A stretch of DNA of 61,788 nucleotides. Source: Cyanobacteriota bacterium (GTDB lineage: Bacteria > Cyanobacteriota > Vampirovibrionia > LMEP-6097). Both the position numbers and the translations under genes were made by a program. Positions 4,810-58,522 of the stretch are shown here, piece after piece. The stretch spans positions 1-61,788 of the forward strand of contig JAQCFG010000002.1 of assembly GCA_027618255.1 (NCBI GenBank), in the 5' to 3' direction. The stretch's first letter is position 1; each line of letters opens with the position of its first letter. The notes under the pieces were generated by a model, which saw nothing but the letters and a program-made list of their open reading frames with translations, did no database searches and had not been told where the DNA came from.

Positions 4810-7113
4810 TTAATATCCTGGTGCTGGGTTTTTGAATTTGGTTATATTACTTTGGAATAACAATTCAACCACGCCCACTGGTCCTGATCTATGTTTTGCG
4901 ATTATTACATCAGCAATTCCTGCTTTCTCTGATTCAGGATTATAGTAATCATCTCTGTAAATGAAGACCACGATATCCGCGTCTTGTTCGATAGATCCGC
5001 TGTCACGTAAATCAGAAAGCATCGGTCGCTTGTCTTGCCTTGATTCAACCGCCCTTGACAACTGCGATAGAGCCATTACTGGTACATTGAGTTCACGTGC
5101 CATCATTTTTAAACCCCTAGAAATTTCAGAGATTTGATTAATACGCGTGTCGTTTGATCTTCCTTCAAGGAGCTGCAAATAATCGATTACAACTAAGCCA
5201 AGTTCACCATTGGTCATTGCTTGCAATCTTCGACATTTGCCGCGAAGTTCCATGACTGATACTCCACCTGAATCATCAAGGTAGAGAGGAGCTTCACCAA
5301 GCTCACTCATTGCCGTTCCTAATCTCGCCCAGTCATCAGCATGAAGTTGTCCAGATCTTACTCTTGAACTATCTACTTCTGCTCTTGAACAGAGAAGTCT
5401 TTGAACTAGTTGTTCTTTCGACATCTCTAAACTAAATAGTGCAACTGGTTTTTTGGTGTTGATGGCTACGTTTTCTGCGATGTTCAAAGCAAGTGAGGTA
5501 TTATGCACACAAATATCATTTGCTACAAAATTGTGAGTCTCCGCTATGGTCAAGTCATAGACTTGTTCTGAGCCATGGTGCTCGATTGATACAATCTGGT
5601 CCCAGTAAATGTCACCTTGAGTATTTTTGTTCGGTTCATTTAGCTTGAGTTGTTGGTTGATAGTGTTGAGTGCTTCTTCTTGAGTGAAGATCCCAATTTC
5701 TTCTATGAATGTCTTAATAGAGCTATGTTCTGTAATATCAAGTTGCCAGGTTGTTGCTTGATGGATTGAGGAGATGATCCCAAAGCGTAATAGTAAATGT
5801 TGAATTTGTTTAACTACTGTTTGTGATTGAGAGATAAGAGAAATTTGAGTTTGATTTATGTTTAACGATCCAGTCCAATTATTTGCTGAGAATAGGCGGT
5901 TTATAAATAGAGCCAACTGTTCTTTTGGTAATTGGAAAACATCTTCAGGGATCTTTTCTATAGAAATTGGAGGTTTGCTTGGATTCTTCTGAATCATTTG
6001 ACAAGAGGTGTTGAGAGTATTTGCGACTAGTTGAATGTCTTGTGTTGTAATCTCTTGTTCTACTGTAAATTCAAGCCCCTCTAATGAGTTGTTGCCAATT
6101 GTTAATCCCAATAATTTAGCTTCACAATCCCTAAGCCTCTCCTGACCAAAGACATTAATGATTCTTGGTACAGCCACTTTATCACCAACTTGAAGCTCAG
6201 CAAGTTTTTTCCAACCTTCGATTGTTAGATAAGGATGACTGAGAGTTGTTTTGATGGAGCGACCTGTTTTGGTTTTGACTTCAAAGATAGGCTTGATACC
6301 ATCATCTATGAAAGCAGATGGTTTTGTAAACTTGAAATTCCAATTAGTATCGAGTGTTAAAATCTTGGCATTCTGAGATTTATAAATATCTTCAATTGTT
6401 TTTAAGCTACCATCTTCAAGAATAATCTCAGAGTCTTTATGCAGGCATTTCCCCATAGCCGGCCTTGCAGCAAGAATCAATAAATCACTTTTTTGTAAAC
6501 CAGATGTTAGGACATTAAAGTCGTGATAACCAGTGTCCAAGCCTGATAGCTGGTTTTTATTTGCTTCTCTTTCTTCAAGAATTTTCCAACTCTTGTGAAC
6601 TAGGTCTCCAATATGAATCAATTGATCTTTGGATTTGGATTGCGAAAGATTGAAAATAAGTTGTTCTGCTTTGTCGACAAGTGTATCAAGGTCTTCTTCG
6701 CTTTGATGCCCTAGTTCAACAATTTGATTACCAGCAAGAATCATATTGCGTAGTAGAGATTTGGCTTTGATTATTTTGGCGTAATGAGGAGCGTTGGCTG
6801 CAATTGGTGCGTGGTCAGTAAGCGCAGATAAATAACTGCGACCACCAATCTCTTCAAGTTGATTTTGATCCTTGAGATATTGCGAAGCAGTAAGAATATC
6901 GATATTTTCGCTTTTTTCATTTAATCTCAAAAACGCTTCATATATAAGTTGATGTGCTCGCTTATAAAAGAAGTTGGCACTGTCAATATGTTCAACGACT
7001 TTGTGTAGGGCTTCACCATCTACTAGGATGGCTCCCAATACTGCTTGTTCAGCTTCGATACTGCTCGGCAGTAGTTCGTTATGGTTCTTTTTGTTTGCAA
7101 AGCTGGTGCTCAT
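4810..7113 (-). CDS. dnaB: replicative DNA helicase DnaB interrupted by an intein in the Walker A loop
   Basis: DnaB N-domain (AEQAVLGAIL), split P-loop ARPAMGK|C...HN|TSLALN, Walker B VVIDYLQL, SGSIEQDADIV. Confidence 0.95.
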   Translation of the reverse strand: MSTSFANKKNHNELLPSSIEAEQAVLGAILVDGEALHKVVEHIDSANFFYKRAHQLIYEAFLRLNEKSENIDILTASQYLKDQNQLEEIGGRSYLSALTDHAPIAANAPHYAKIIKAKSLLRNMILAGNQIVELGHQSEEDLDTLVDKAEQLIFNLSQSKSKDQLIHIGDLVHKSWKILEEREANKNQLSGLDTGYHDFNVLTSGLQKSDLLILAARPAMGKCLHKDSEIILEDGSLKTIEDIYKSQNAKILTLDTNWNFKFTKPSAFIDDGIKPIFEVKTKTGRSIKTTLSHPYLTIEGWKKLAELQVGDKVAVPRIINVFGQERLRDCEAKLLGLTIGNNSLEGLEFTVEQEITTQDIQLVANTLNTSCQMIQKNPSKPPISIEKIPEDVFQLPKEQLALFINRLFSANNWTGSLNINQTQISLISQSQTVVKQIQHLLLRFGIISSIHQATTWQLDITEHSSIKTFIEEIGIFTQEEALNTINQQLKLNEPNKNTQGDIYWDQIVSIEHHGSEQVYDLTIAETHNFVANDICVHNTSLALNIAENVAINTKKPVALFSLEMSKEQLVQRLLCSRAEVDSSRVRSGQLHADDWARLGTAMSELGEAPLYLDDSGGVSVMELRGKCRRLQAMTNGELGLVVIDYLQLLEGRSNDTRINQISEISRGLKMMARELNVPVMALSQLSRAVESRQDKRPMLSDLRDSGSIEQDADIVVFIYRDDYYNPESEKAGIADVIIAKHRSGPVGVVELLFQSNITKFKNPAPGY
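5500..6447 (-). mobile_element. DnaB intein, 316 aa (residues 223-538), with degenerate LAGLIDADG-like homing endonuclease core
   Basis: Cys1 (CLHKDSEI; codon 6445-6447), block B TLSHP, block F/G VYDLTIAETHNFVANDICVHN (Asn codon 5500-5502) followed by Thr+1; LLGLTIGNNS and LFINRLFSANNW blocks. Confidence 0.9.
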
Positions 7114-8604: not shown

Positions 8605-8761
8605 TTCGCTGCCTTTGGAGATAATTCCGACTTTCAAAACAAGTCTATTAGACCTCTTTCGAAACCGAAGGTTTCGTGTAATGAGGTCTTACAAAAGACC
8701 CAAAATCGAAGATTTTGGTAGAGTTCTTTCAGTCCCATTTATGGGTTTCGAAAGAACTCTA
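8605..8761 (+). repeat. composite of four nested hairpin elements (family-1 3' end 8605-8647; 8649-8691; 8692-8718; 8719-8761)
   Basis: Near-identical inverted copy at 54309-54467 (about 3 mismatches in the central 120 nt). Confidence 0.9.
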
Positions 8762-10247
8762 TTATAGAACCAGGAGTCGAAGACTCCGTTTGCAGCTCCA
8801 AAGGAGCGTTTGCAGGGTTCAGGGAGAATGGAGAACCTATGTTCGTCGGTGAAGGATCTGAAGCCATGTAGGGATCGACCATTGGCTTTTCAGTTAAAGC
8901 AATGCCGTTATTTAAAGCTATCGCACCATAATAATCATAACTCTTCTTCTTCGTTCTCACAAAACTATTGTGATCTACATGCACTAATCCAAACCTTGGT
9001 TTCATACCCAGTGCCCATTCAAAATTGTCTAACAAGCTCCAATGGAAATAACCTTGGACATTGGCACCCTCATTAATTGCGCGGTGAACAGCTATCAAGT
9101 GATCACGAATAAATTTGATTCTATAATTATCTTCAATATCAAGTTGATCTGCTTCAACCTTGCTATAACCATTTTCGGTAATATAAATTGGTCTGCCTTC
9201 AAGCATTCTTGTTAGTTTCTTGTCAGTGAGCACTTTGTACAAGCCTTCTGGATAAATCTCCCAGCCAAGACTATTAGCTTCTGACTCTGGATAAGGATCT
9301 AGTTCTCCCCAGAAACTTGAATCTACATTGGGATCAGCATTGTCCTTGGCTTTCGGGTTGAGTTTGTAACTGAAGCGAGTATAGTAATTTACTCCAAGGA
9401 AATCAAGTGTGTCCATTTCGATACAAGACTCTATAAAAGCATAGTTGTGCAATTGTTTGCGCAGCGCATTTGGCATTGCATTAGCTGATTGCCATTTTTT
9501 TTCGTGAAGACTTTCGTCCTTGCTTTCATAGGCATATAGGTTTTGTGCAAAGCCAACTTGCGCCTGGGGGTTATGTTCTTTGATGGTTTTGTAAGCGAGT
9601 TGATGCCCAAGAAGCAGACCCTGATAGGCTTTGAAGTATCTATTCCAGTCATTGCTGTAACCAGGCGGCCAGATGCCAGACTCATAACCAAAGCCAAGAA
9701 ATATATTTGGCTCATTATGGGTGACCCAGTTTTTGATTCTGTCACCATAGCGCTTCACCAAAAACTCAGTGAACTTTTGAAACTCATTGGCAGTGTTGGA
9801 ATTCTCCCAACCACCTGCTTTGGCCAGCCAAGTTGGAATTGCAAAATGCACAATTGTTGCAAAAGCTTCGATCCGAGCTTTATGAGCAAGTCCAGCCTTG
9901 TCTTGCAATAACTGATCCAAAAGAGTGTCGTAGAACTTAGCGGCGTTTTCATCAAACTCACCAGGTCCACGATGCAATCTTGCCCAGTTAAAAGAAAAAC
10001 GATAAGCATTATTGTTCATGCCTCGAATCAAATCAACATCTTCTATCATTTGCTCGTAGTGATTCACCGCTCTACCGTCATTAGTCGGCTTTTTGACTTT
10101 GTCTTCTCGTTCTATCCATTCAGACCAATCAGATAATTTGCCAAGAGCTTCCTCTGGGTGACCCTCAATCTGAAATGCAGCTGTAGCCGTACCCCAATAG
10201 AATTTGTTGGGGAATTTCAAGCTATTTGTTCTGGTTTGGCTACTCAC
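8739..10247 (-). CDS. glycoside hydrolase family 1 beta-glucosidase
   Basis: Acid/base THNEPN and nucleophile YITENG motifs; last codons and stop lie in repeat 8719-8761. Confidence 0.85.
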   Translation of the reverse strand: MSSQTRTNSLKFPNKFYWGTATAAFQIEGHPEEALGKLSDWSEWIEREDKVKKPTNDGRAVNHYEQMIEDVDLIRGMNNNAYRFSFNWARLHRGPGEFDENAAKFYDTLLDQLLQDKAGLAHKARIEAFATIVHFAIPTWLAKAGGWENSNTANEFQKFTEFLVKRYGDRIKNWVTHNEPNIFLGFGYESGIWPPGYSNDWNRYFKAYQGLLLGHQLAYKTIKEHNPQAQVGFAQNLYAYESKDESLHEKKWQSANAMPNALRKQLHNYAFIESCIEMDTLDFLGVNYYTRFSYKLNPKAKDNADPNVDSSFWGELDPYPESEANSLGWEIYPEGLYKVLTDKKLTRMLEGRPIYITENGYSKVEADQLDIEDNYRIKFIRDHLIAVHRAINEGANVQGYFHWSLLDNFEWALGMKPRFGLVHVDHNSFVRTKKKSYDYYGAIALNNGIALTEKPMVDPYMASDPSPTNIGSPFSLNPANAPLELQTESSTPGSIIEFFRNP

Positions 10248-13406: not shown

Positions 13407-13459
13407 GAAAGTCCTCTTTATCTTTACTAACGGAACTAGTGCTTCGCACCGTTCCGACC
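13407..13459 (-). repeat. family D hairpin repeat, copy 1
   Basis: About 46/52 identical to reverse complement of 58616-58667. Confidence 0.8.
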
Positions 13460-13469
13460 TTCTCTGTAT

Positions 13470-13507
13470 CGACATCACTAGCAAAACAAAGTTTTGCAGG
13501 ATGTCTA
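13470..13507 (-). repeat. family-1b single-hairpin mini element
   Basis: CGACATCACTAGCAAAACAAAGTTTTGCAGGATGTCTA matches the hairpin-1 module of 13737-13848. Confidence 0.85.
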
Positions 13508-13705
13508 GTGATCCGAAGAATCATAAATCTTGTTAATTGCTTCAAGTATCGGTTTTGGAGGATCTGGATCTTCCTTGGTATCCTCTTTAATTTGTTTAGC
13601 AATTCTAGCTAAGTCTTTAGTTAACTCATAAATATTTGGCTCTTGGTCTGTTAAGTCACTCAAGAGTGCATGAGTTAGGTGATGTTCGTCGTGCTTTTTG
13701 GTCAT
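13505..13705 (-). CDS. hypothetical small acidic protein (66 aa)
   Basis: ATG ORF; stop codon TAG is the terminal TAG of repeat 13470-13507. Confidence 0.4.
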   Translation of the reverse strand: MTKKHDEHHLTHALLSDLTDQEPNIYELTKDLARIAKQIKEDTKEDPDPPKPILEAINKIYDSSDH

Positions 13706-13736
13706 GACTGATTATTATAGCATAACAGTACTCTAT

Positions 13737-13848
13737 TAGACTTACTGCAAAAGTCGGAATTCTCCTTAAAGCAAACGCAACATTCGTTGCGGTTGCTACC
13801 TTTTTTAAAGCGACATCACTAGCAAAACGGGGTTTTGCAGGATGTCTA
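13737..13848 (-). repeat. family-1b MITE-like three-hairpin element, full length (112 bp)
   Basis: TAGAC...GTCTA ends; nearly identical to 18835-18946. Confidence 0.9.
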
Positions 13849-13969
13849 TTACCTAATTCCTTGCTAACAGCTCTATTATTGTGAATGGTTCAAAGATAGT
13901 GACTTGCTTGTGATTGTGGTTTTTGCGGACAGTGCCTGTTTGATATACGTATTACGACAGCACCCTTAT

Positions 13970-18791: not shown

Positions 18792-18834
18792 GACTTTAGC
18801 GTTATTACCTAGTCCACAAATGGCATTTTCATAA

Positions 18835-18946
18835 TAGACTTACTGCAAAAGTCGGAATTATACTTAAAGCAAACGCAACATTCGTTGCGGTTGCTACCTT
18901 TTTTAAAGCGACATCACTAGCAAAACGGGGTTTTGCAGGATGTCTA
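18835..18946 (-). repeat. family-1b MITE-like element, full length (112 bp)
   Basis: Differs from 13737-13848 only around GGAATTATACTT vs GGAATTCTCCTT. Confidence 0.9.
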
Positions 18947-19162
18947 ATAATATTGTTTTGTTATTTGAGTCTTAACTTAATATTGGTACAAAGTATTTAT
19001 GCACATCGATTCGGGATTTCAGAGTGATGCAGAGGCTGTCGTCAGCTCTGAGAAAAAAGAAACTAAAACAAGTTCATTTAGTGCTGAGCTGCAAGAACTC
19101 AATCGAGAGAGATATATAATCGAGCGCCAGTTGAAAATACAAGAAATGATTTTTAAAGATGA

Positions 19163-25738: not shown

Positions 25739-25784
25739 AAGCACACCCCGGGTATCACAAATTTGTGATACCCGGGGTGTGCTT
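25739..25784. repeat. 46-bp perfect palindrome sharing ACCCCGGGTATC with 22917-23038
   Basis: AAGCACACCCCGGGTATCACAAA|TTTGTGATACCCGGGGTGTGCTT, followed by TTCTTT. Confidence 0.95.
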
Positions 25785-26037
25785 TTCTTTATAATTTCTT
25801 TATCAAGTAAAGACTAGACACTAGGTTTAGACTCTGTTAGTATGGATAGAACCGACATTCAAGTCCGCATCTTTCCAAGTTTCTGTATCAAACTTGGTTT
25901 CTGGAAGCAATTACGTTTCCTAGAGTAAAAATTTTATTCGACAATTCAACCCGTTGATACGCTAGCAAGTCTTGCGTCAGATTTATTCTGGCGCAGAGGC
26001 TTGATTTCTACGAGATTGAATCATGAATAATCAGTAA

Positions 26038-26150
26038 TAGACCTGTTTCGAAACAAAGTTTCGATGTACAGGTCGATCAAAAAAAGGTAGCAACCGCAAG
26101 GAACGTGCGTGTTGCCTTTGGAGATAGTTTAGGCTTCCAAAACAAGTCTA
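26038..26150 (+). repeat. family-1a MITE-like three-hairpin element, full length (113 bp)
   Basis: Same length and architecture as 39591-39703; TAGACCTGTTTCGAAAC...TTCCAAAACAAGTCTA. Confidence 0.9.
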
Positions 26151-28997: not shown

Positions 28998-29071
28998 GGC
29001 ATGCGTTTCGCATGGTTGCTACCTTTTTTAAGCGACCTGTATCTTCGAAACGCTGTTTCGAAACAGGTCTA
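28998..29071 (-). repeat. family-1a element, 5' two-thirds only
   Basis: Reverse complement reads TAGACCTGTTTCGAAACAGCGTTTCGAAGATACAGGTCGCTTAAAAAAGGTAGCAACCATGCGAAACGCATGCC. Confidence 0.85.
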
Positions 29072-34493: not shown

Positions 34494-34517
34494 TAGACCT
34501 GTTTCGAAACAGGTCTA
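34494..34517. repeat. 24-bp minimal family-1a palindrome
   Basis: TAGACCTGTTTCGAAACAGGTCTA; its last 3 nt are the stop codon of the adjacent gene. Confidence 0.9.
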
Positions 34518-36341
34518 TTGACTATTGTTCTTCGAACGATTAAATAAAGACGGAATAATTTCTTTGTAGTTGGCTCTTATGACATTACGTTTGACTTTGA
34601 GCGTTGGAGTAAGTTCCCCACTTTCAATAGTAAGTTCATTATCCAGGAGATGAAAAGCTTTGATTTGTTCATGTTGATCAAGCTCACGATTAAATCTATT
34701 AACTTCACTCTCTATTAATTCATTAACATCTTTATTGTCACAGAATTTTTGTGCTGGATCATAATTTAGTCTTGTCTCCTCGAGATAAAGCTTGATTGCT
34801 GCCCGGTCTGGGACCAAGAGTGCTGCAAGATATTTTTCTGCTTCGCCGAGTATCACAGCTTGGTTGATATATTTACTTGCAAGCAAGACGGCTTCGACTT
34901 TTTGAGGTGCTATGTTTTTGCCACCAGCAGTAATTATGATGTCTTTTTTGCGTCCCGTGATACTGAGGTAACCATCGCTGTCAAAGCTTCCAAGATCGCC
35001 GGTATGGAACCAACCATCCTCGTCTATCACTTCTCTAGTGGTTTCTGGTTCTTTATAATATTCTTTAAATACAGATTCGCCACGACAAATTATTTCGCCA
35101 TCATCACCAAATTTGATTTCAAAATGAGAGAATGGAATTCCTACTGTGCCGGGTTTGTTTGCCCATGGAGGATTAACGGTGATTGGTGCAGAGGTTTCTG
35201 TTAATCCATAACCTTCTACAACGGCAAAACCAAGAGCTAAGAAAAAGAAAGCAAGTTCTTTAGAAAAAGCAGCTCCGCCAACTACAAAGATTTTGAGATT
35301 GGGAGCAATTTTGGCTTTGACTTTAGACAAGACCATTTTGTAAGCGAGACTATGTTGAAGTTCTAGCTCCCAGCCTATCGTTTCCTTTGCTAGTTTTTTT
35401 TGTTGATAAAGTAAAGCAAGTTCTAATGCTTTATTAAATGCTTTTTGTTGTAATGCACCTTGCTTACTGACGTTGAGAATGATTTTGGCATGTATCTTTT
35501 CAAGCATTCTTGGCACTACGTTGATAATGTGACAATCTGATTCAAGTAAGAGCTTTGGTAATAGCTCGACTTTTTCACAGTAAGAGAAGATGACGCCTTG
35601 ATCAATACCGTAGATTTGACCAGCGATACGTTCAAAAATATGCGCAAGCGGCAAGAAGGAAAGCATGTGCATACCCTCTTCTAGTGGTACGTATTGATAG
35701 AAAGATAGTGCAGCAACTAAGAAGTTACGATGAGTTAAGACTACTCCCTTGGGAATGCCAGTTGTTCCAGATGTATAGATGATACTACAAAGATCATCGA
35801 GCTCTACATAGCTTACTTTGTTGATTATTAATCCTGGGTTTTTCTTTAATGCTTCTTTGCCGATCTTTTGAAACTCAGTGAGTGTAAGGATCTTGGGGTC
35901 ATTTTGTGGAATGTCTCCACGGTCTTCCATTACAATTACGTAACGAAGATTAGGCAGATTTTCCCATGAAGCCCTTAATTTTTGTAATTGGATTTTATTA
36001 TGTACAAATACAATTTCAATTTCGGCATGATTAACTATATATTCAATGGTGTCACTGGTAGAATTGTGATACATCGGCACAGTGCAAGCTCCGAGACTAA
36101 GTATCGCCATGTCGCATGGAAGCCAGTGATGGCAGGTAACAGAAAGAAGTCCAACTTTGGATCCTTTGCCAATATCAAGTTCATCTAGTCCTGCCGCAAT
36201 TTCTTCGATTTTGACGCGCACTTCTTTCCAGGTGGATTGTTCTAGTGGACGATTTGGATGCGTTTTGAAACGCATGAGAACTTTTTTTTCGTTCTTCTCT
36301 GCTTTTTTAAAAAATAAATCGGCTACGTTTTTGTATTTCAT
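34515..36341 (-). CDS. long-chain fatty acid--CoA ligase (AMP-dependent synthetase)
   Basis: AMP-binding motif IIYTSGTTGIPKGVVLTHRN and TGDLG, GRKKDII. Confidence 0.85.
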   Translation of the reverse strand: MKYKNVADLFFKKAEKNEKKVLMRFKTHPNRPLEQSTWKEVRVKIEEIAAGLDELDIGKGSKVGLLSVTCHHWLPCDMAILSLGACTVPMYHNSTSDTIEYIVNHAEIEIVFVHNKIQLQKLRASWENLPNLRYVIVMEDRGDIPQNDPKILTLTEFQKIGKEALKKNPGLIINKVSYVELDDLCSIIYTSGTTGIPKGVVLTHRNFLVAALSFYQYVPLEEGMHMLSFLPLAHIFERIAGQIYGIDQGVIFSYCEKVELLPKLLLESDCHIINVVPRMLEKIHAKIILNVSKQGALQQKAFNKALELALLYQQKKLAKETIGWELELQHSLAYKMVLSKVKAKIAPNLKIFVVGGAAFSKELAFFFLALGFAVVEGYGLTETSAPITVNPPWANKPGTVGIPFSHFEIKFGDDGEIICRGESVFKEYYKEPETTREVIDEDGWFHTGDLGSFDSDGYLSITGRKKDIIITAGGKNIAPQKVEAVLLASKYINQAVILGEAEKYLAALLVPDRAAIKLYLEETRLNYDPAQKFCDNKDVNELIESEVNRFNRELDQHEQIKAFHLLDNELTIESGELTPTLKVKRNVIRANYKEIIPSLFNRSKNNSQ

Positions 36342-37763: not shown

Positions 37764-37828
37764 CTTAGACTTGGGTTTCCCATGCAAGGTGACTTCGTCA
37801 CCCAATTATCGGACTCAGTTCCTTTAAG

Positions 37829-37900
37829 GATTCACTGAAAAATACAAAGTCTCAACCCTTATCTGTCACGTGCTCTGTACGGGCAGAACCTTTTTTCATA
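37829..37900 (-). repeat. family B repeat, partial copy
   Basis: Matches reverse complement of 44093-44165. Confidence 0.8.
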
Positions 37901-38844: not shown

Positions 38845-40371
38845 ATGAAGGATCTTGGACAATACACAGATATCCACTACGATTCACGACAAGTGAGTCC
38901 AGGTTCTATCTTTGTTGCAATTATTGGTGATGATGTTGATGGTCATGATTATATTAAAGCTGCAATAAATAAAGGAGCAGTTTTAATTATTGCTGAAAAA
39001 CAAATTACTGTGCCAGAGGGGATAGAGCTTTGTGTTGTTGAAGACTCTCGTCAAGAGCTTGCTAGACTTAGTTCTGACTTTTACGGCAAGCCAGATCAAA
39101 CGATTGACTTGATTGCAGTTACTGGTACTAATGGCAAAACTACTATGACGCATCTTTTGCAAGAGCTTTTGCCAAAGACCGCTTTGCTTGGAACCATGGG
39201 CCTCAAAACTTCTGCTAAAGCGGATTATGACGATCTTGGTAATACTACGCCTCAGTCTAAAGAGATTTATCGAATACTGGCTGATCTTGTTAATCACAAC
39301 TTTAAATATCTGGCAATGGAAGTGAGTTCTCACGCACTTGAACAAAAACGTGTCGCTGGACTTCAATACAAGGCGGCTGTGATAACTAATCTAACTCAAG
39401 ATCATTTGGATTATCACGTGACCATGGATAACTATTTTGAAGCGAAAGCCAAACTGTTCAAGCAAGTCAGCGAGTATGTGCTGCTCAATGCCGATGATGA
39501 ATATTACGAGCGTTTCAAAAATAAACTAGGTTCTTTAACAAGTTTTAGTTTCGCGCTGAATGCAGATGCTGATTATCAGGCGATTGATATTAGACCTGTT
39601 TCGAAACACAGTTTCGATGTACAGGTCGCTCAAAAAAAGGTAGCAACCGCGCGGAATGCGCGTGTTGCCTTTGGAGATAATTCCGACTTTCAAAACAAGT
39701 CTATCGAATATAACGCAGCTGGTATGAGCTATACCGTAGTTGCCAAGGGCAATAGGCTCGGCGAAGTGGCTTTGCAACTTAACGGTCAGTTTAATGTTTA
39801 TAATTCACTGGCTGCAATTGCAGTTGCACTTGAGGAAGGAATCAAGTTTGAAGATATTCAAAAACAACTTGCAAAGATTCCACCTGTGGCTGGACGTTTT
39901 GAAGTAATTCAAACTGAAACTAGTCCTACCTGTGTCGTTGACTATGCTCATAGCCCTGATGGATTATTGAATGTACTTCAAGGAGCAAGAGGCTTGGTGG
40001 ATCATGCTAACGACTCACGATTGATTTGTTTATTTGGTTGTGGCGGTGATAGAGACATCACCAAGCGTCCTAAGATGGGCACGATTGCTTATGACTTGGC
40101 TGACTATATTTATGTGACTTCGGACAACCCGCGTAGTGAGGATCCAGATCAAATCATTGCGGATATATTAACGGGGATTCCTGATTTGAATAAAGTCAAA
40201 GTCATTGCTGATAGGCGACAGGCAATTCAAGCTGCCGTTGCAGAAGCTAGGCAGGGAGATGTATTGGTGGTTGCTGGTAAGGGACATGAGGACTATCAAA
40301 TACTTAGAACTGAGACAATTCATTTTGATGATAGAGAAGAAGTAAGGAAGGGAATAGGGATGTGTAGTTAA
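38845..40371 (+). CDS. murE: UDP-N-acetylmuramoyl-L-alanyl-D-glutamate--2,6-diaminopimelate ligase carrying an in-frame repeat insertion
   Basis: VTGTNGKTT P-loop, Mur ligase middle and C-terminal DNPR motif (TSDNPRSEDP). Confidence 0.9.
   Translation: MKDLGQYTDIHYDSRQVSPGSIFVAIIGDDVDGHDYIKAAINKGAVLIIAEKQITVPEGIELCVVEDSRQELARLSSDFYGKPDQTIDLIAVTGTNGKTTMTHLLQELLPKTALLGTMGLKTSAKADYDDLGNTTPQSKEIYRILADLVNHNFKYLAMEVSSHALEQKRVAGLQYKAAVITNLTQDHLDYHVTMDNYFEAKAKLFKQVSEYVLLNADDEYYERFKNKLGSLTSFSFALNADADYQAIDIRPVSKHSFDVQVAQKKVATARNARVAFGDNSDFQNKSIEYNAAGMSYTVVAKGNRLGEVALQLNGQFNVYNSLAAIAVALEEGIKFEDIQKQLAKIPPVAGRFEVIQTETSPTCVVDYAHSPDGLLNVLQGARGLVDHANDSRLICLFGCGGDRDITKRPKMGTIAYDLADYIYVTSDNPRSEDPDQIIADILTGIPDLNKVKVIADRRQAIQAAVAEARQGDVLVVAGKGHEDYQILRTETIHFDDREEVRKGIGMCS
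39591..39703 (+). mobile_element. family-1a MITE-like element inserted in frame inside murE
   Basis: 113 bp, same architecture as intergenic copy 26038-26150; translated as RPVSKHSFDVQVAQKKVATARNARVAFGDNSDFQNKS. Confidence 0.9.
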
Positions 40372-54308: not shown

Positions 54309-54467
54309 TAGAGTTCTTTCGAAACCCATAAATGGGTCCGAAAGAACTCTACCAAAATCTTCGATTTTGGGTCTTTTGTAAGACCTCATTACACGAAACC
54401 TTCGGTTTCCAAAGAGGTCTAATAGACTTGTTTTGAAAGTCGGAATTATCTCCAAAGGCAACAGCGC
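54309..54467 (-). repeat. composite of nested hairpin elements, inverted copy of 8605-8761
   Basis: Same order of four sub-elements in reverse complement; further TAGAC fragments at 54497 and 54516. Confidence 0.9.
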
Positions 54468-58401: not shown

Positions 58402-58412
58402 AGCCACAATTA

Positions 58413-58522
58413 AGCATACACTGAAAAATAGACTTTCTCGCGCCTTATGTGACACGTGTTCTGCACGGTCACAACCTTTTATCATGGACCCGACTAGAAA
58501 AACTTCGTTTTTCAGCGTGTCC
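58413..58522 (-). repeat. family B repeat, full length
   Basis: Reverse complement aligns with 44058-44165 end to end. Confidence 0.85.

Follow-up and report, generated by a model that had tools for sequence, protein, structure and literature searches.

Small repeats that enter protein-coding genes without breaking their reading frames have been described in several bacteria. Rickettsia palindromic elements (RPEs), first described by Ogata et al. (2000, 2002), encode in-frame peptides within unrelated genes (summarized in PMC10969869, PMC3184786), and outside Rickettsia the ERIC, BOX and QMITE repeats are documented as entering genes in frame (PMC10969869, PMC3184786, PMC5896051). Bacterial MITEs also fuse occasionally with ORFs in frame, either internally or at a terminus (PMC3184786, PMC5896051, PMC10969869).

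Here we describe a 113-nt structured repeat that lies in frame inside murE in a window of 61,788 nt (contig JAQCFG010000002.1, positions 1 to 61,788, forward strand) from a Cyanobacteriota bacterium (assembly GCA_027618255.1). Other kinds of insertion that leave a host gene working differ from such repeats in size and in how they are dealt with by the cell. MITEs range from ~50 to 500 nt, whereas group I and group II introns have minimum sizes of ~200 nt and ~400 nt, respectively. Inteins have at least ~130 aa and bear splicing motifs, in many cases together with a homing endonuclease; they are excised after translation. Translational bypass of inserts, in turn, is known from T4 gene 60 and from the yeast mitochondrial 'byp' mobile elements.

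Results

murE contains an in-frame insertion that is absent from its orthologues

The host gene, the element and their junction are positioned as follows.

38845-40371, + strand: murE ORF (UDP-MurNAc-L-Ala-D-Glu:meso-DAP ligase), host of the element; 508 aa (ORF list, Pfam, PDB, AF2)
39591-39703, + strand: MITE-like full-length element, TAGACCTGTTTCGAAACA...CAAAACAAGTCTA; 113 nt, 1 nt off the family consensus
39592-39702, + strand: 37 element-encoded codons in the murE frame, RPVSKHSFDVQVAQKKVATARNARVAFGDNSDFQNKS; residues 250-286, no stop
39702-39706, + strand: right junction, from comparison of the DNA with the empty site and from protein alignments; TA at 39702-39703 repeats TA at 39591-39592

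In the ORF list, 38845-40371 is the sole long ORF around the 113-nt element. Its 508-aa product contains the Pfam domains Mur_ligase, Mur_ligase_M and Mur_ligase_C and matches MurE proteins in the PDB (E ~1e-91). With these three domains, a P-loop (GTNGKT), a DNPR motif and a neighbourhood (hisF-murE-hypothetical-glycosyltransferase) that has the same order in relatives, the product is assigned as a MurE orthologue, its functional status being predicted from the sequence. An earlier sequence-only reading of this DNA had placed the element within the murE ORF, translated without a stop between intact Mur ligase motifs, and had taken the segment to be specific to this lineage. Consistent with that reading, the translated ORF continues through the element as RPVSKH...FQNKS (residues 250-286), VTGTNGKTT and TSDNPRSEDP are intact with one on each side of the insert, and the segment is present in none of 18 aligned MurE orthologues (49-87% identity), among them the syntenic sister at 87% identity. 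A homologous peptide at this position, which the reading had named as the finding that would speak against it, was looked for in the same alignment and occurs in 0 of the 18.

The DNA of the sister orthologue (loci L011-L013) has the empty site GATATTA/AATAT, in which the element is absent. Together with the absence of the segment from 18/18 orthologues, this empty site bears out the proposed direction of the event, namely from element into gene. The size of the event had to be corrected. Relative to all orthologues, the gain is 38 residues (114 nt), with a single empty-site comparison, that with the sister murE, behind the 114-nt figure; the earlier estimate had been a net gain of 111 bp, or 37 codons. 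Likewise, deletion of 39591-39701, which had been proposed to restore a continuous sequence, gives D-I-I-E-Y, whereas the orthologues have D-I-x-Y. Compared with the orthologues, murE has one more Ile codon, ATC (39703-39705), and TAT at 39702-39704 repeats TAT at 39588-39590 at an offset of 114. Because the gain is 38 codons, a simple TA duplication is not a full account of the junction. TA opens and closes every copy of the element and may represent a TA duplication or else belong to the inverted ends; in six of eight copies the two bases just outside the element are the same, and a 1-bp duplication model fits 6/8 sites. We rejected 3-bp duplication models (TAT, TAA or TAG flanks, or TNA) as a general rule because only 3/8 sites fit.

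Since the repeat is multi-copy and the assemblies are metagenomic, a repeat-induced chimera arising during assembly or binning might have placed the element in murE. However, the same 508-aa protein is called on four contigs, and an ENA contig (L014) is 100% identical across the whole gene, so that an assembly artefact is not indicated. Moreover, both junctions are clean, keep the frame and fall at the TA of the orthologous TTAA, where the sister gene is unoccupied, and 113 nt is below typical read or insert lengths. We regard the chance that the insertion is an artefact as close to negligible.

The inserted element resembles a MITE

Four structural features were delineated within the element.

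39591-39606, + strand: left terminal inverted repeat, TAGACCTGTTTCGAAA; 14/16 against the reverse complement of the right end
39688-39703, + strand: right terminal inverted repeat, TTTCAAAACAAGTCTA; direct end comparison
39593-39627, + strand: hairpin 1, GACCUGU/UUCGAAAC...GUUUCGA/ACAGGUC; MFE fold, kept in the 8-copy consensus structure
39636-39672, + strand: hairpin 2, GGUAGCAAC-CGCGC...GCGCG-UGUUGCC; MFE fold and 8-copy consensus structure

Both ends of the element carry TAGACyTGTTTyGAAA (14/16 match in the murE copy), and across eight copies the inverted ends match at 13-16 of 22 positions. These ends were computed by direct comparison; an automated inverted-repeat search reported neither the ends nor the hairpins. 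A 17-nt end motif occurs eight times in the window against 0.3 occurrences expected. The RNA of the element is predicted to fold with an energy of -45.8 kcal/mol (z = -5.8). Covariation among the eight copies consists of one compensatory pair, a GC to AU change in hairpin 2 within the orthologous pair 26038/L113, and is uninformative because the copies are too similar. A terminator scan gave a weak match inside the element (hairpin 2) that was not above shuffle expectation, and Rfam returned nothing relevant for the whole window at gathering thresholds or for 39500-39800 at E <= 10, the best score on the element being that of Leu_leader (20 bits against a threshold of 50). The coding capacity of the element is limited to 37-codon read-through frames, with no transposase. 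In its size and lack of a transposase, its terminal inverted repeats and its dispersed copies with occupied and empty sites, the element has several of the properties by which MITEs are recognized.

Copies are few, confined to a narrow clade and in one case identical to that in murE

Further copies in the window are listed below.

26038-26150, + strand: second full-length copy, intergenic; 90% identity to the murE copy over 113 nt; orthologous to L113 and L214
8610-8647, + strand: partial copy consisting of the right arm (100% identical), joined to further palindromic units
54423-54467, - strand: partial copy, right arm; 98-100% identical; same composite as 8610-8647, inverted
29003-29071, - strand: partial copy, left end and central part; 86% identical, intergenic
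34494-34517, no strand assigned: solo 24-nt perfect palindrome from two left ends, TAGACCTGTTTCGAAACAGGTCTA; from motif occurrences

The copy at 26038-26150, which the sequence-only reading had also pointed out, is real, intergenic and 90% identical over all 113 nt; the loci L113 and L214, which hold the orthologous copies, belong to the sister species. The repeat units in the window are modular and occur in mosaic combinations, so that a classical single-unit MITE is perhaps too simple a description. In all, the family occupies ~7 independent sites, distributed over two related species. Only three of these sites are genic (murE, a ResB-like gene and a gene for a 546-aa hypothetical protein), a low share (3/7) for a window that is 86% coding (P = 0.01).

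Pattern scans, with three matches among 185,579 species genomes plus one from the JGI metagenome scan, restrict the family to a narrow Melainabacteria clade, the hosts being MAGs labelled as Melainabacteria or Cyanobacteria. When the 16-nt pattern GTTGCCTTTGGAGATA was run against genome contigs, it gave at least 120 chance matches, with L113 as the sole new real copy. A 47-aa peptide profile run against an index of 5.8 billion proteins recovered three short ORFs that overlie intergenic copies but none of the known genic hosts, and an exhaustive search of representative proteins gave nine matches, of which only P0122-P0125 were real. There are few hosts among representative proteins because insert-free cluster representatives hide insert-bearing ones.

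The murE copy is identical at 113/113 positions to a copy (L221) that MAG GCA_027622095.1, apparently the window's own organism, carries in its 546-aa gene. Because of this identity, we take the murE insertion to be very recent. An older insertion is that in the 546/550-aa gene, which is common to two species whose host proteins are 89% identical; there the element is 95.6% identical and the flanking CDS 85.5% identical. The intergenic copy at 26038 and its counterpart L113 are also 95.6% identical, and the spacer next to them is conserved to the same degree. A generally stronger conservation of the element than of the sequence around it was therefore not relied on, since it holds against CDS flanks and fails at the intergenic locus 26038/L113.

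Genic copies share the one open frame of the element

Frame +1 of the element is the only frame that is open in all copies, and all three independent genic copies use it, reading RPVSK...FQN(K/E)S; were the frame immaterial, this would have a probability of (1/6)^3. In-frame genic insertion is thus no one-off event in murE but recurs in two further genes with the same element frame. In the murE product, the tryptic peptides expected from the insert sequence include HSFDVQVAQK and VAFGDNSDFQNK.

That one peptide is found in three unrelated proteins raises the possibility that the basic segment has been selected for a common function, such as interaction or localization, in MurE, the ResB-like protein and the 546-aa protein. 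The copy in the 546-aa gene, kept in two species with higher identity than the CDS around it, would fit this explanation. However, comparison of synonymous with non-synonymous changes among the copies gave no sign of selection on the peptide, the genic copies behaving as the intergenic ones do; the intergenic copies are as well conserved as the genic ones, in a spacer that is itself generally well conserved; the AF2 model has no confident structure for the insert; and the murE copy has arrived too recently for any selection on it to show. We therefore think it very unlikely that the segment is an adaptive module.

Frame use also bears on whether the element might be absent from mature MurE, either through translational bypass or through removal from the mRNA. 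In the former case ribosomes would leave Ile-249 (AUU, 39589-39591), spurred by the AGA that immediately follows this putative take-off codon and by the very stable hairpin that starts 2 nt after the same codon, and land on AUC (39703-39705), leaving the whole 114-nt gain untranslated and giving D-I-E-Y. In accordance with such a hop, the 38-codon gain is bounded by two Ile codons, and skipping it recreates the orthologue-length D-I-x-Y. Nevertheless, no stop follows the take-off codon, and the frame is open throughout the insert; all three independent genic copies lie in the sole open frame, which would be needless if the element were skipped; the flanking codons form no matched pair at the other genic sites; there is no match to an intron or RNA family, and 113 nt is too short for a group I or II intron; nor does a segment of 37 aa that starts with Arg and has no splicing motifs qualify as an intein. 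The missing stop, the open insert and the frame restriction together favour ordinary read-through over bypass, and the restriction of all genic copies to the open frame in particular argues strongly for the former. Loss of the segment by bypass or RNA removal is accordingly hard to credit, and the specific hop from AUU to AUC is equally so. If bypass did occur, the element would represent, on a bacterial chromosome, the equivalent of T4 gene 60 and the mitochondrial 'byp' mobile elements, and the MurE junction peptide would span ...AIDIEYNAAGMSYTVVAK.

The MurE fold is predicted to accommodate the insert

An AF2 model of the insert-bearing MurE has a mean pLDDT of 82.5, with residues 251-285 below 50; this low-confidence insert is flanked by strands at 244-247 and 288-290. 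In Foldseek comparisons the model matches E. coli MurE (1E8C) with TM 0.80-0.82, and thus, at the level of the prediction, the MurE fold is kept despite the insert. Alignment to the PDB MurEs breaks into two stretches in the presence of the insert, whereas its deletion in silico gives one uninterrupted alignment with a higher score. The insertion site aligns with ~K274-E277 of E. coli MurE, within a strand, so that the insert lies inside a predicted β-strand where no obvious loop is seen. In the orthologue alignment MurE length varies in this region, and P0064-type MurEs have a natural insertion of ~24 aa located ~15 residues downstream of the element site.

It could be argued that the insertion has inactivated or crippled murE and that the gene is at the start of decay, the cell being sustained by MurE activity from elsewhere, be it another murE gene or a Mur ligase paralogue. 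The split β-strand of the central domain would be in keeping with this, as would the extreme recency of the insertion (113/113 against the sibling copy) and the fact that, for the murE copy, about one third of insertions would be open by luck. The sequence-only reading had held that the gene does not look like a pseudogene, and on the sequence this stands: the ORF is intact, all columns invariant over 19 MurE sequences are retained, synteny is conserved and dN/dS against the sister gene is 0.12. These signs reflect mostly the history before the insertion, and because the insertion is so recent they cannot show function after it. A second murE, the other finding that the reading had named as speaking against it, was looked for and not found among the matches listed in a MurE search of the genome contigs (listed relatives at <=46% identity). 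Against decay stand the facts that the interrupted gene is the syntenic orthologue; that the next-best MurE matches (P0002, P0009 and P0010) come from other assemblies or samples in orthologous context and are not paralogues; that the identical allele is present on four contigs; that the element has survived in frame through a speciation event in the 546/550-aa gene; and that MurE is naturally variable in length here. Taken together, we consider a murE in decay to be unlikely.

Discussion

We consider it very probable that a small non-autonomous mobile element has inserted in murE and that a working enzyme bears the peptide of the element as an extra loop. The element is MITE-like (113 nt, ~16-nt imperfect inverted ends starting from TA, two strong hairpins, no transposase) and recently transposed to an AT-rich TA site midway along murE, where its landing position and orientation set in the host frame the one element frame that is stop-free in every copy. 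Because this frame is open, the ribosome would read straight through, and MurE would gain 37 element residues (38 relative to the orthologues). The segment is predicted to interrupt a peripheral β-strand or hairpin of the central Mur_ligase_M domain and most likely loops out flexibly, such that the three-domain fold and the catalytic motifs stay intact. We infer that the insert is translated into mature MurE and that the enzyme retains its activity. The element would not target the frame. Rather, insertions in other phases or orientations would cut an essential enzyme short and so disappear, and it may be because of such losses that the surviving genic copies in murE, the ResB-like gene and the 546-aa hypothetical share a frame; purifying selection on phase and orientation alone can yield a pattern in which insertions are always in frame.

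Mobilization would presumably be in trans, by a transposase. The flanks at the ~7 independent sites (W/TA...TA/W, resembling CAW-TA-WTG) suggest one of a TA-targeting, IS630/Tc1-like type. Within the window, no transposase domain was found in any ORF of >=150 aa, and no parent insertion sequence with the ends of the element was found.

The murE insertion opens no new class of mechanism. It does indicate that RPE-like colonization of genes in frame takes place also in an uncultured Melainabacteria-type lineage, and it offers a natural before/after pair near time zero, with a 100% identical sibling copy and an empty site in the sister species. Such a pair provides a gauge of insertion tolerance in the central domain of MurE, which is an essential drug-target enzyme. 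If the enzyme is active, the region of ~K274-E277 (E. coli numbering) would be a permissive Mur ligase site for tagging or loop grafting.

Several systems may be set beside this locus. A group I or group II intron, or any other self-removing RNA, was rejected given the 113-nt length of the element and the absence of any Rfam family near its gathering score. An intein was likewise rejected, the insert having 37 aa that start with Arg-Pro and end with Lys-Ser, followed by Ile, and MurE having no intein Pfam domain, although inteins share with the element that a selfish insertion in an essential gene would leave host function intact. A DnaB intein is present elsewhere in the window (4810-7113; Pfam). 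Bypass elements (T4 gene 60, 'byp') are similar in that a short insert in an essential CDS lies between an AUU...AUC pair of Ile codons with a hairpin after the first. They differ in that the murE insert has no stop after take-off and an open frame, and in that genic copies occur only in the open frame; the insert does not fit the T4 gene 60 type, in that the codon after take-off is AGA rather than a stop and that the gap is an open frame.

There is a resemblance to IS630/Tc1-mariner MITEs, for example the cyanobacterial Nezha (cited in PMC10969869), through TA at the ends, CAW-TA-WTG-like flanks and a TTAA empty site. In contrast to these, for which TA duplication predicts a gain of 111 nt, the sole empty-site comparison gives 114 nt; the base outside the element is identical at both ends in 6/8 copies of the family; and no IS630-type transposase with the element's ends is present in the window. 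With ERIC/YPAL, pneumococcal BOX/RUP/SPRITE, Coxiella QMITE1/2, Anabaena MITEs and Neisseria Correia, the murE element has in common that it is non-autonomous and within ~100-200 nt, with inverted ends, stable hairpins and a mostly intergenic distribution. However, the internal fusions reported for such bacterial MITEs mostly concern hypothetical or non-essential genes or the ends of genes, whereas here the insertion is in murE, mid-domain; in addition, the murE element has no parent insertion sequence found, and its units occur in mosaic combinations.

The RPEs provide a close parallel, as the sequence-only reading had proposed and as the repeated in-frame entry into unrelated genes, the use of one element frame and the intact host ORFs now support. 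Like RPEs, the family consists of short (~105-150 nt), palindromic and strongly structured repeats that are intergenic as well as within unrelated genes, are compatible with the host frame and add a conserved peptide of ~35-50 aa to a host protein that stays intact. Unlike RPEs, it resides in a Melainabacteria-type MAG rather than in Rickettsia, and the murE element is low-copy, has clear TA-initial inverted ends and has moved very recently. We place the murE element outside the RPE families on its host clade and its lack of an Rfam match, rather than on a direct alignment with RPEs; the repeat family appears to be unrelated and undescribed. In-frame repeat insertion is already known from RPEs, ERIC, BOX and QMITE; what is new is this repeat family and the lineage in which it is found.

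A repeat element is inserted in frame in murE

[quoted passage not shown]

38845..40371 (+): murE ORF, 508 aa, containing the element
39591-39703: 113-nt element

The surrounding sequence is ...GATTGATAT/TAGACCTGTTTCGAAACACAGTTTCGATGTACAGGTCGCTCAAAAAAAGGTAGCAACCGCGCGGAATGCGCGTGTTGCCTTTGGAGATAATTCCGACTTTCAAAACAAGTCTA/TCGAATATAAC... and, as the sequence-only reading had proposed, the murE ORF reads through the element without a stop, as RPVSKHSFDVQVAQKKVATARNARVAFGDNSDFQNKS (residues 250-286). The ORF carries the Pfam domains Mur_ligase, Mur_ligase_M and Mur_ligase_C, which identify it as MurE, and aligns with MurEs of known structure at E ~1e-91; the P-loop VTGTNGKTT and the motif TSDNPRSEDP, previously described as intact, are both kept.

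The segment is absent, with a clean gap, from all 18 orthologues in the protein alignment (49-87% identity) and is thus lineage-specific. The closest of these, from a sister species (P0002), has the same gene neighborhood (hisF, murE, a convergent hypothetical gene and a glycosyltransferase), and the synteny downstream of murE is also kept in more distant relatives. In the sister DNA the site is empty, a TTAA, its sequence being GATATTA/AATATAAG as against GATAT-(element)-TCGAATATAAC in the window; together with the 18 orthologues, this upholds the proposed direction of the event, from element into gene. Four contigs encode exactly this 508-aa protein, and across the whole of murE the independent ENA contig L014 shows 100% identity, so the insertion is not an assembly artefact, an explanation to which we give next to no chance.

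The gain had been put at 37 codons. Relative to every orthologue, it is 38 residues (114 nt), the orthologues having D-I-x-Y and the window D-I-(37 aa)-I-E-Y. The element plus duplication of a TA dinucleotide accounts for 111 nt and leaves over one codon at the right junction; the +114 nt at the one empty site compared is not wholly explained by a simple TA duplication.

The element belongs to a narrowly distributed, TA-flanked family

The ends of the element are imperfect inverted repeats, TAGACyTGTTTyGAAA, matching at 14 of 16 positions, and the window contains eight occurrences of the end motif, compared with an expected 0.3. The predicted fold (-45.8 kcal/mol, z = -5.8) includes two strong hairpins, both conserved in every copy; no Rfam family matches the element. 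Pattern scans found the element in one narrow clade alone, which carries the label Melainabacteria/Cyanobacteria: 185,579 species genomes gave three copies, all in the MAG JABHOV01, and JGI metagenomes gave one contig. Short ORFs predicted across copies in ENA/NCBI assemblies led to further examples. MAG GCA_027622095.1 and assemblies ERZ23495042/3 appear to represent the organism of the window. In all, there are about seven independent sites.

Independent sites of the element
murE: genic
26038-26150: second full copy, between genes as first reported, 90% identical to the murE copy; orthologous in the sister species (L113, L214)
L215, L218/219 and L220: three other spacers
L007: ResB-like gene
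L002 (sister) and L221/P0131 (MAG GCA_027622095.1): gene for a hypothetical, secreted-looking protein of 546/550 aa

The flanks, W/TA...TA/W, resemble a CAW-TA-WTG target and, with the TTAA empty site, suggest mobilisation by a TA-targeting transposase (IS630/Tc1-like). In six of eight copies the same base lies outside both ends, which, with the +114 nt, makes a duplication of TA alone less certain. No transposase domain was found in any window ORF of at least 150 aa.

At the element junctions themselves, in-frame 3-nt indels occur in two independent cases: the right junction of murE (39703-39705) holds one Ile codon more than any orthologue, and the 546/550-aa gene has CAA at the left junction in L002 that is missing in L221. 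Between L002 and L221 the outer flanking bases also differ in parallel (A..A versus G..G). These indels may be informative about how long the duplication really is, or about repeated rounds of excision and reinsertion.

Repeats in the window are modular, and dnaB carries an intein

Partial copies and a composite repeat of ~155 nt show the repeats of this genome to be mosaics of modular units that recombine.

8612-8764 (+) and 54309-54465 (-): composite repeat, ~155 nt, two copies 97% identical
13734-13851 and 18832-18949 (also 13451-13512): 118-nt repeat pair, 97% identical
34494-34517: solo 24-nt perfect palindrome TAGACCTGTTTCGAAACAGGTCTA
37824-37899 and 58410-58485: 76-nt direct repeat, 79% identical, ending ...TTTTTTCAT / ...TTTTATCAT
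4810-7113 (-): dnaB with intein

In the composite, 38-46 nt corresponding to the murE element's right arm, at 98-100% identity, are joined to two further palindromic units, TAGACCTCTTTCGAAACC...GAGGTCT and TAGAGTTCTTTC...GAAAGAACTCTA. The 118-nt pair, both copies of which lie between genes, is a sibling family with 77% identity, in inverted orientation, to element positions 35-113. The 24-nt palindrome equals two element left ends back to back and shares 3 nt with the stop end of ORF 34515..36341 (-). At 25745-25790 there is a 42-nt perfect palindrome, GCACACCCCGGGTATCACAAATTTGTGATACCCGGGGTGTGC; the sister (L113) has a different, longer one in its place. Just upstream of the 26038 copy, the intergenic block 25830-26030 is ~97% identical to the sister (L113), compared with 83-86% for neighboring sequence; it has no Rfam match at gathering score and could correspond to a small RNA or short gene that is missing from the annotation. 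On the minus strand the ends of the 76-nt repeat would be start codons, one of a tiny ORF (MKKGSARTEHVTDKG) and the other probably the true start of a solute-binding protein gene, and the two copies may represent a 5' leader common to both. Another essential gene, dnaB for the replicative helicase, also contains a selfish insertion, one unrelated to the murE element: Pfam Intein_splicing and LAGLIDADG_3 lie between its DnaB N- and C-terminal domains.

Genic copies are confined to one reading frame

Only one of the six element frames is stop-free in every copy, and each of the three independent genic copies uses it: in MurE as RPVSKHSFDVQVAQKK..., in the ResB-like protein as RPVSKQRFDVQGAQKK... 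(a stretch that seven ResB homologues either lack or cannot be aligned to), and likewise in the 546/550-aa protein. Were frame irrelevant, the chance of this would be (1/6)^3. Genic sites are also fewer (3 of 7) than expected from a window that is 86% coding (P ~0.01). Both observations are as predicted by purifying selection on translated insertions and argue against any mechanism removing the element from the message. Bypass or RNA-level removal, which the Ile...Ile flanks and 38-codon gain might suggest, is accordingly very improbable given the open frame and its exclusive use in genes. An in-frame copy can persist across speciation, since two species share the one in the 546/550-aa gene, their proteins being 89% identical.

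The insert is predicted to leave the MurE fold intact

The murE insertion is very recent, because its copy is identical to that of L221 (113/113) and differs from the family consensus by a single base. With an insertion so young, the dN/dS of 0.12 against the sister and the retention of all columns invariant across 19 sequences mostly describe the gene before the event. A recent inactivation of murE, masked by another MurE activity, is unlikely; no second murE was seen in the searchable part of the genome.

AlphaFold2 with an orthologue alignment (mean pLDDT 82.5, pTM 0.82) predicts that the fold is kept (TM 0.80-0.82 to E. coli MurE 1E8C), with insert residues 251-285 at pLDDT <50 between strands 244-247 and 288-290. 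Against solved MurEs, the insert-deleted sequence aligns in one stretch with a higher score, and the sequence with the insert in two. The site falls at about K274-E277 of E. coli MurE, on the strand preceding the DSG turn in a central-domain hairpin. About 15 positions downstream, P0064 and other 511-512-aa Melainabacteria MurEs carry ~24 extra residues.

Alignment A1, columns ~350-372: natural MurE insertion, DRLKAKYLAEQNQESDKAKADLDLF...

The length of this central-domain hairpin varies naturally among MurEs.

We consider it likely that a non-autonomous, MITE-like element mobilised in trans landed in murE in the one survivable phase and orientation, and that the insert would be translated as a flexible excursion, leaving MurE in working order. 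The overall interpretation of the sequence-only reading is supported, with corrections that include the 38-codon gain. That the element instead delivered an adaptive peptide module is quite improbable, as no signal of selection on the peptide was found among copies.

Comparison with known systems

Small repeats fused in frame to genes are already known as a kind of event and have been documented for Rickettsia palindromic elements (RPEs), ERIC/YPAL, pneumococcal BOX/RUP/SPRITE, Coxiella QMITEs and Anabaena MITEs (PMC10969869, PMC3184786, PMC5896051). Noteworthy here are the host gene, murE, hit in mid-domain, the age of the event, close to zero, and the availability of an empty-site sister allele. 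The parallel with RPEs drawn earlier holds in that the element, with three in-frame genic copies, works like an RPE; it is, however, not an RPE, and differs in its host, its clear TA-initiated inverted ends, its low copy number and its evidence of current mobility.
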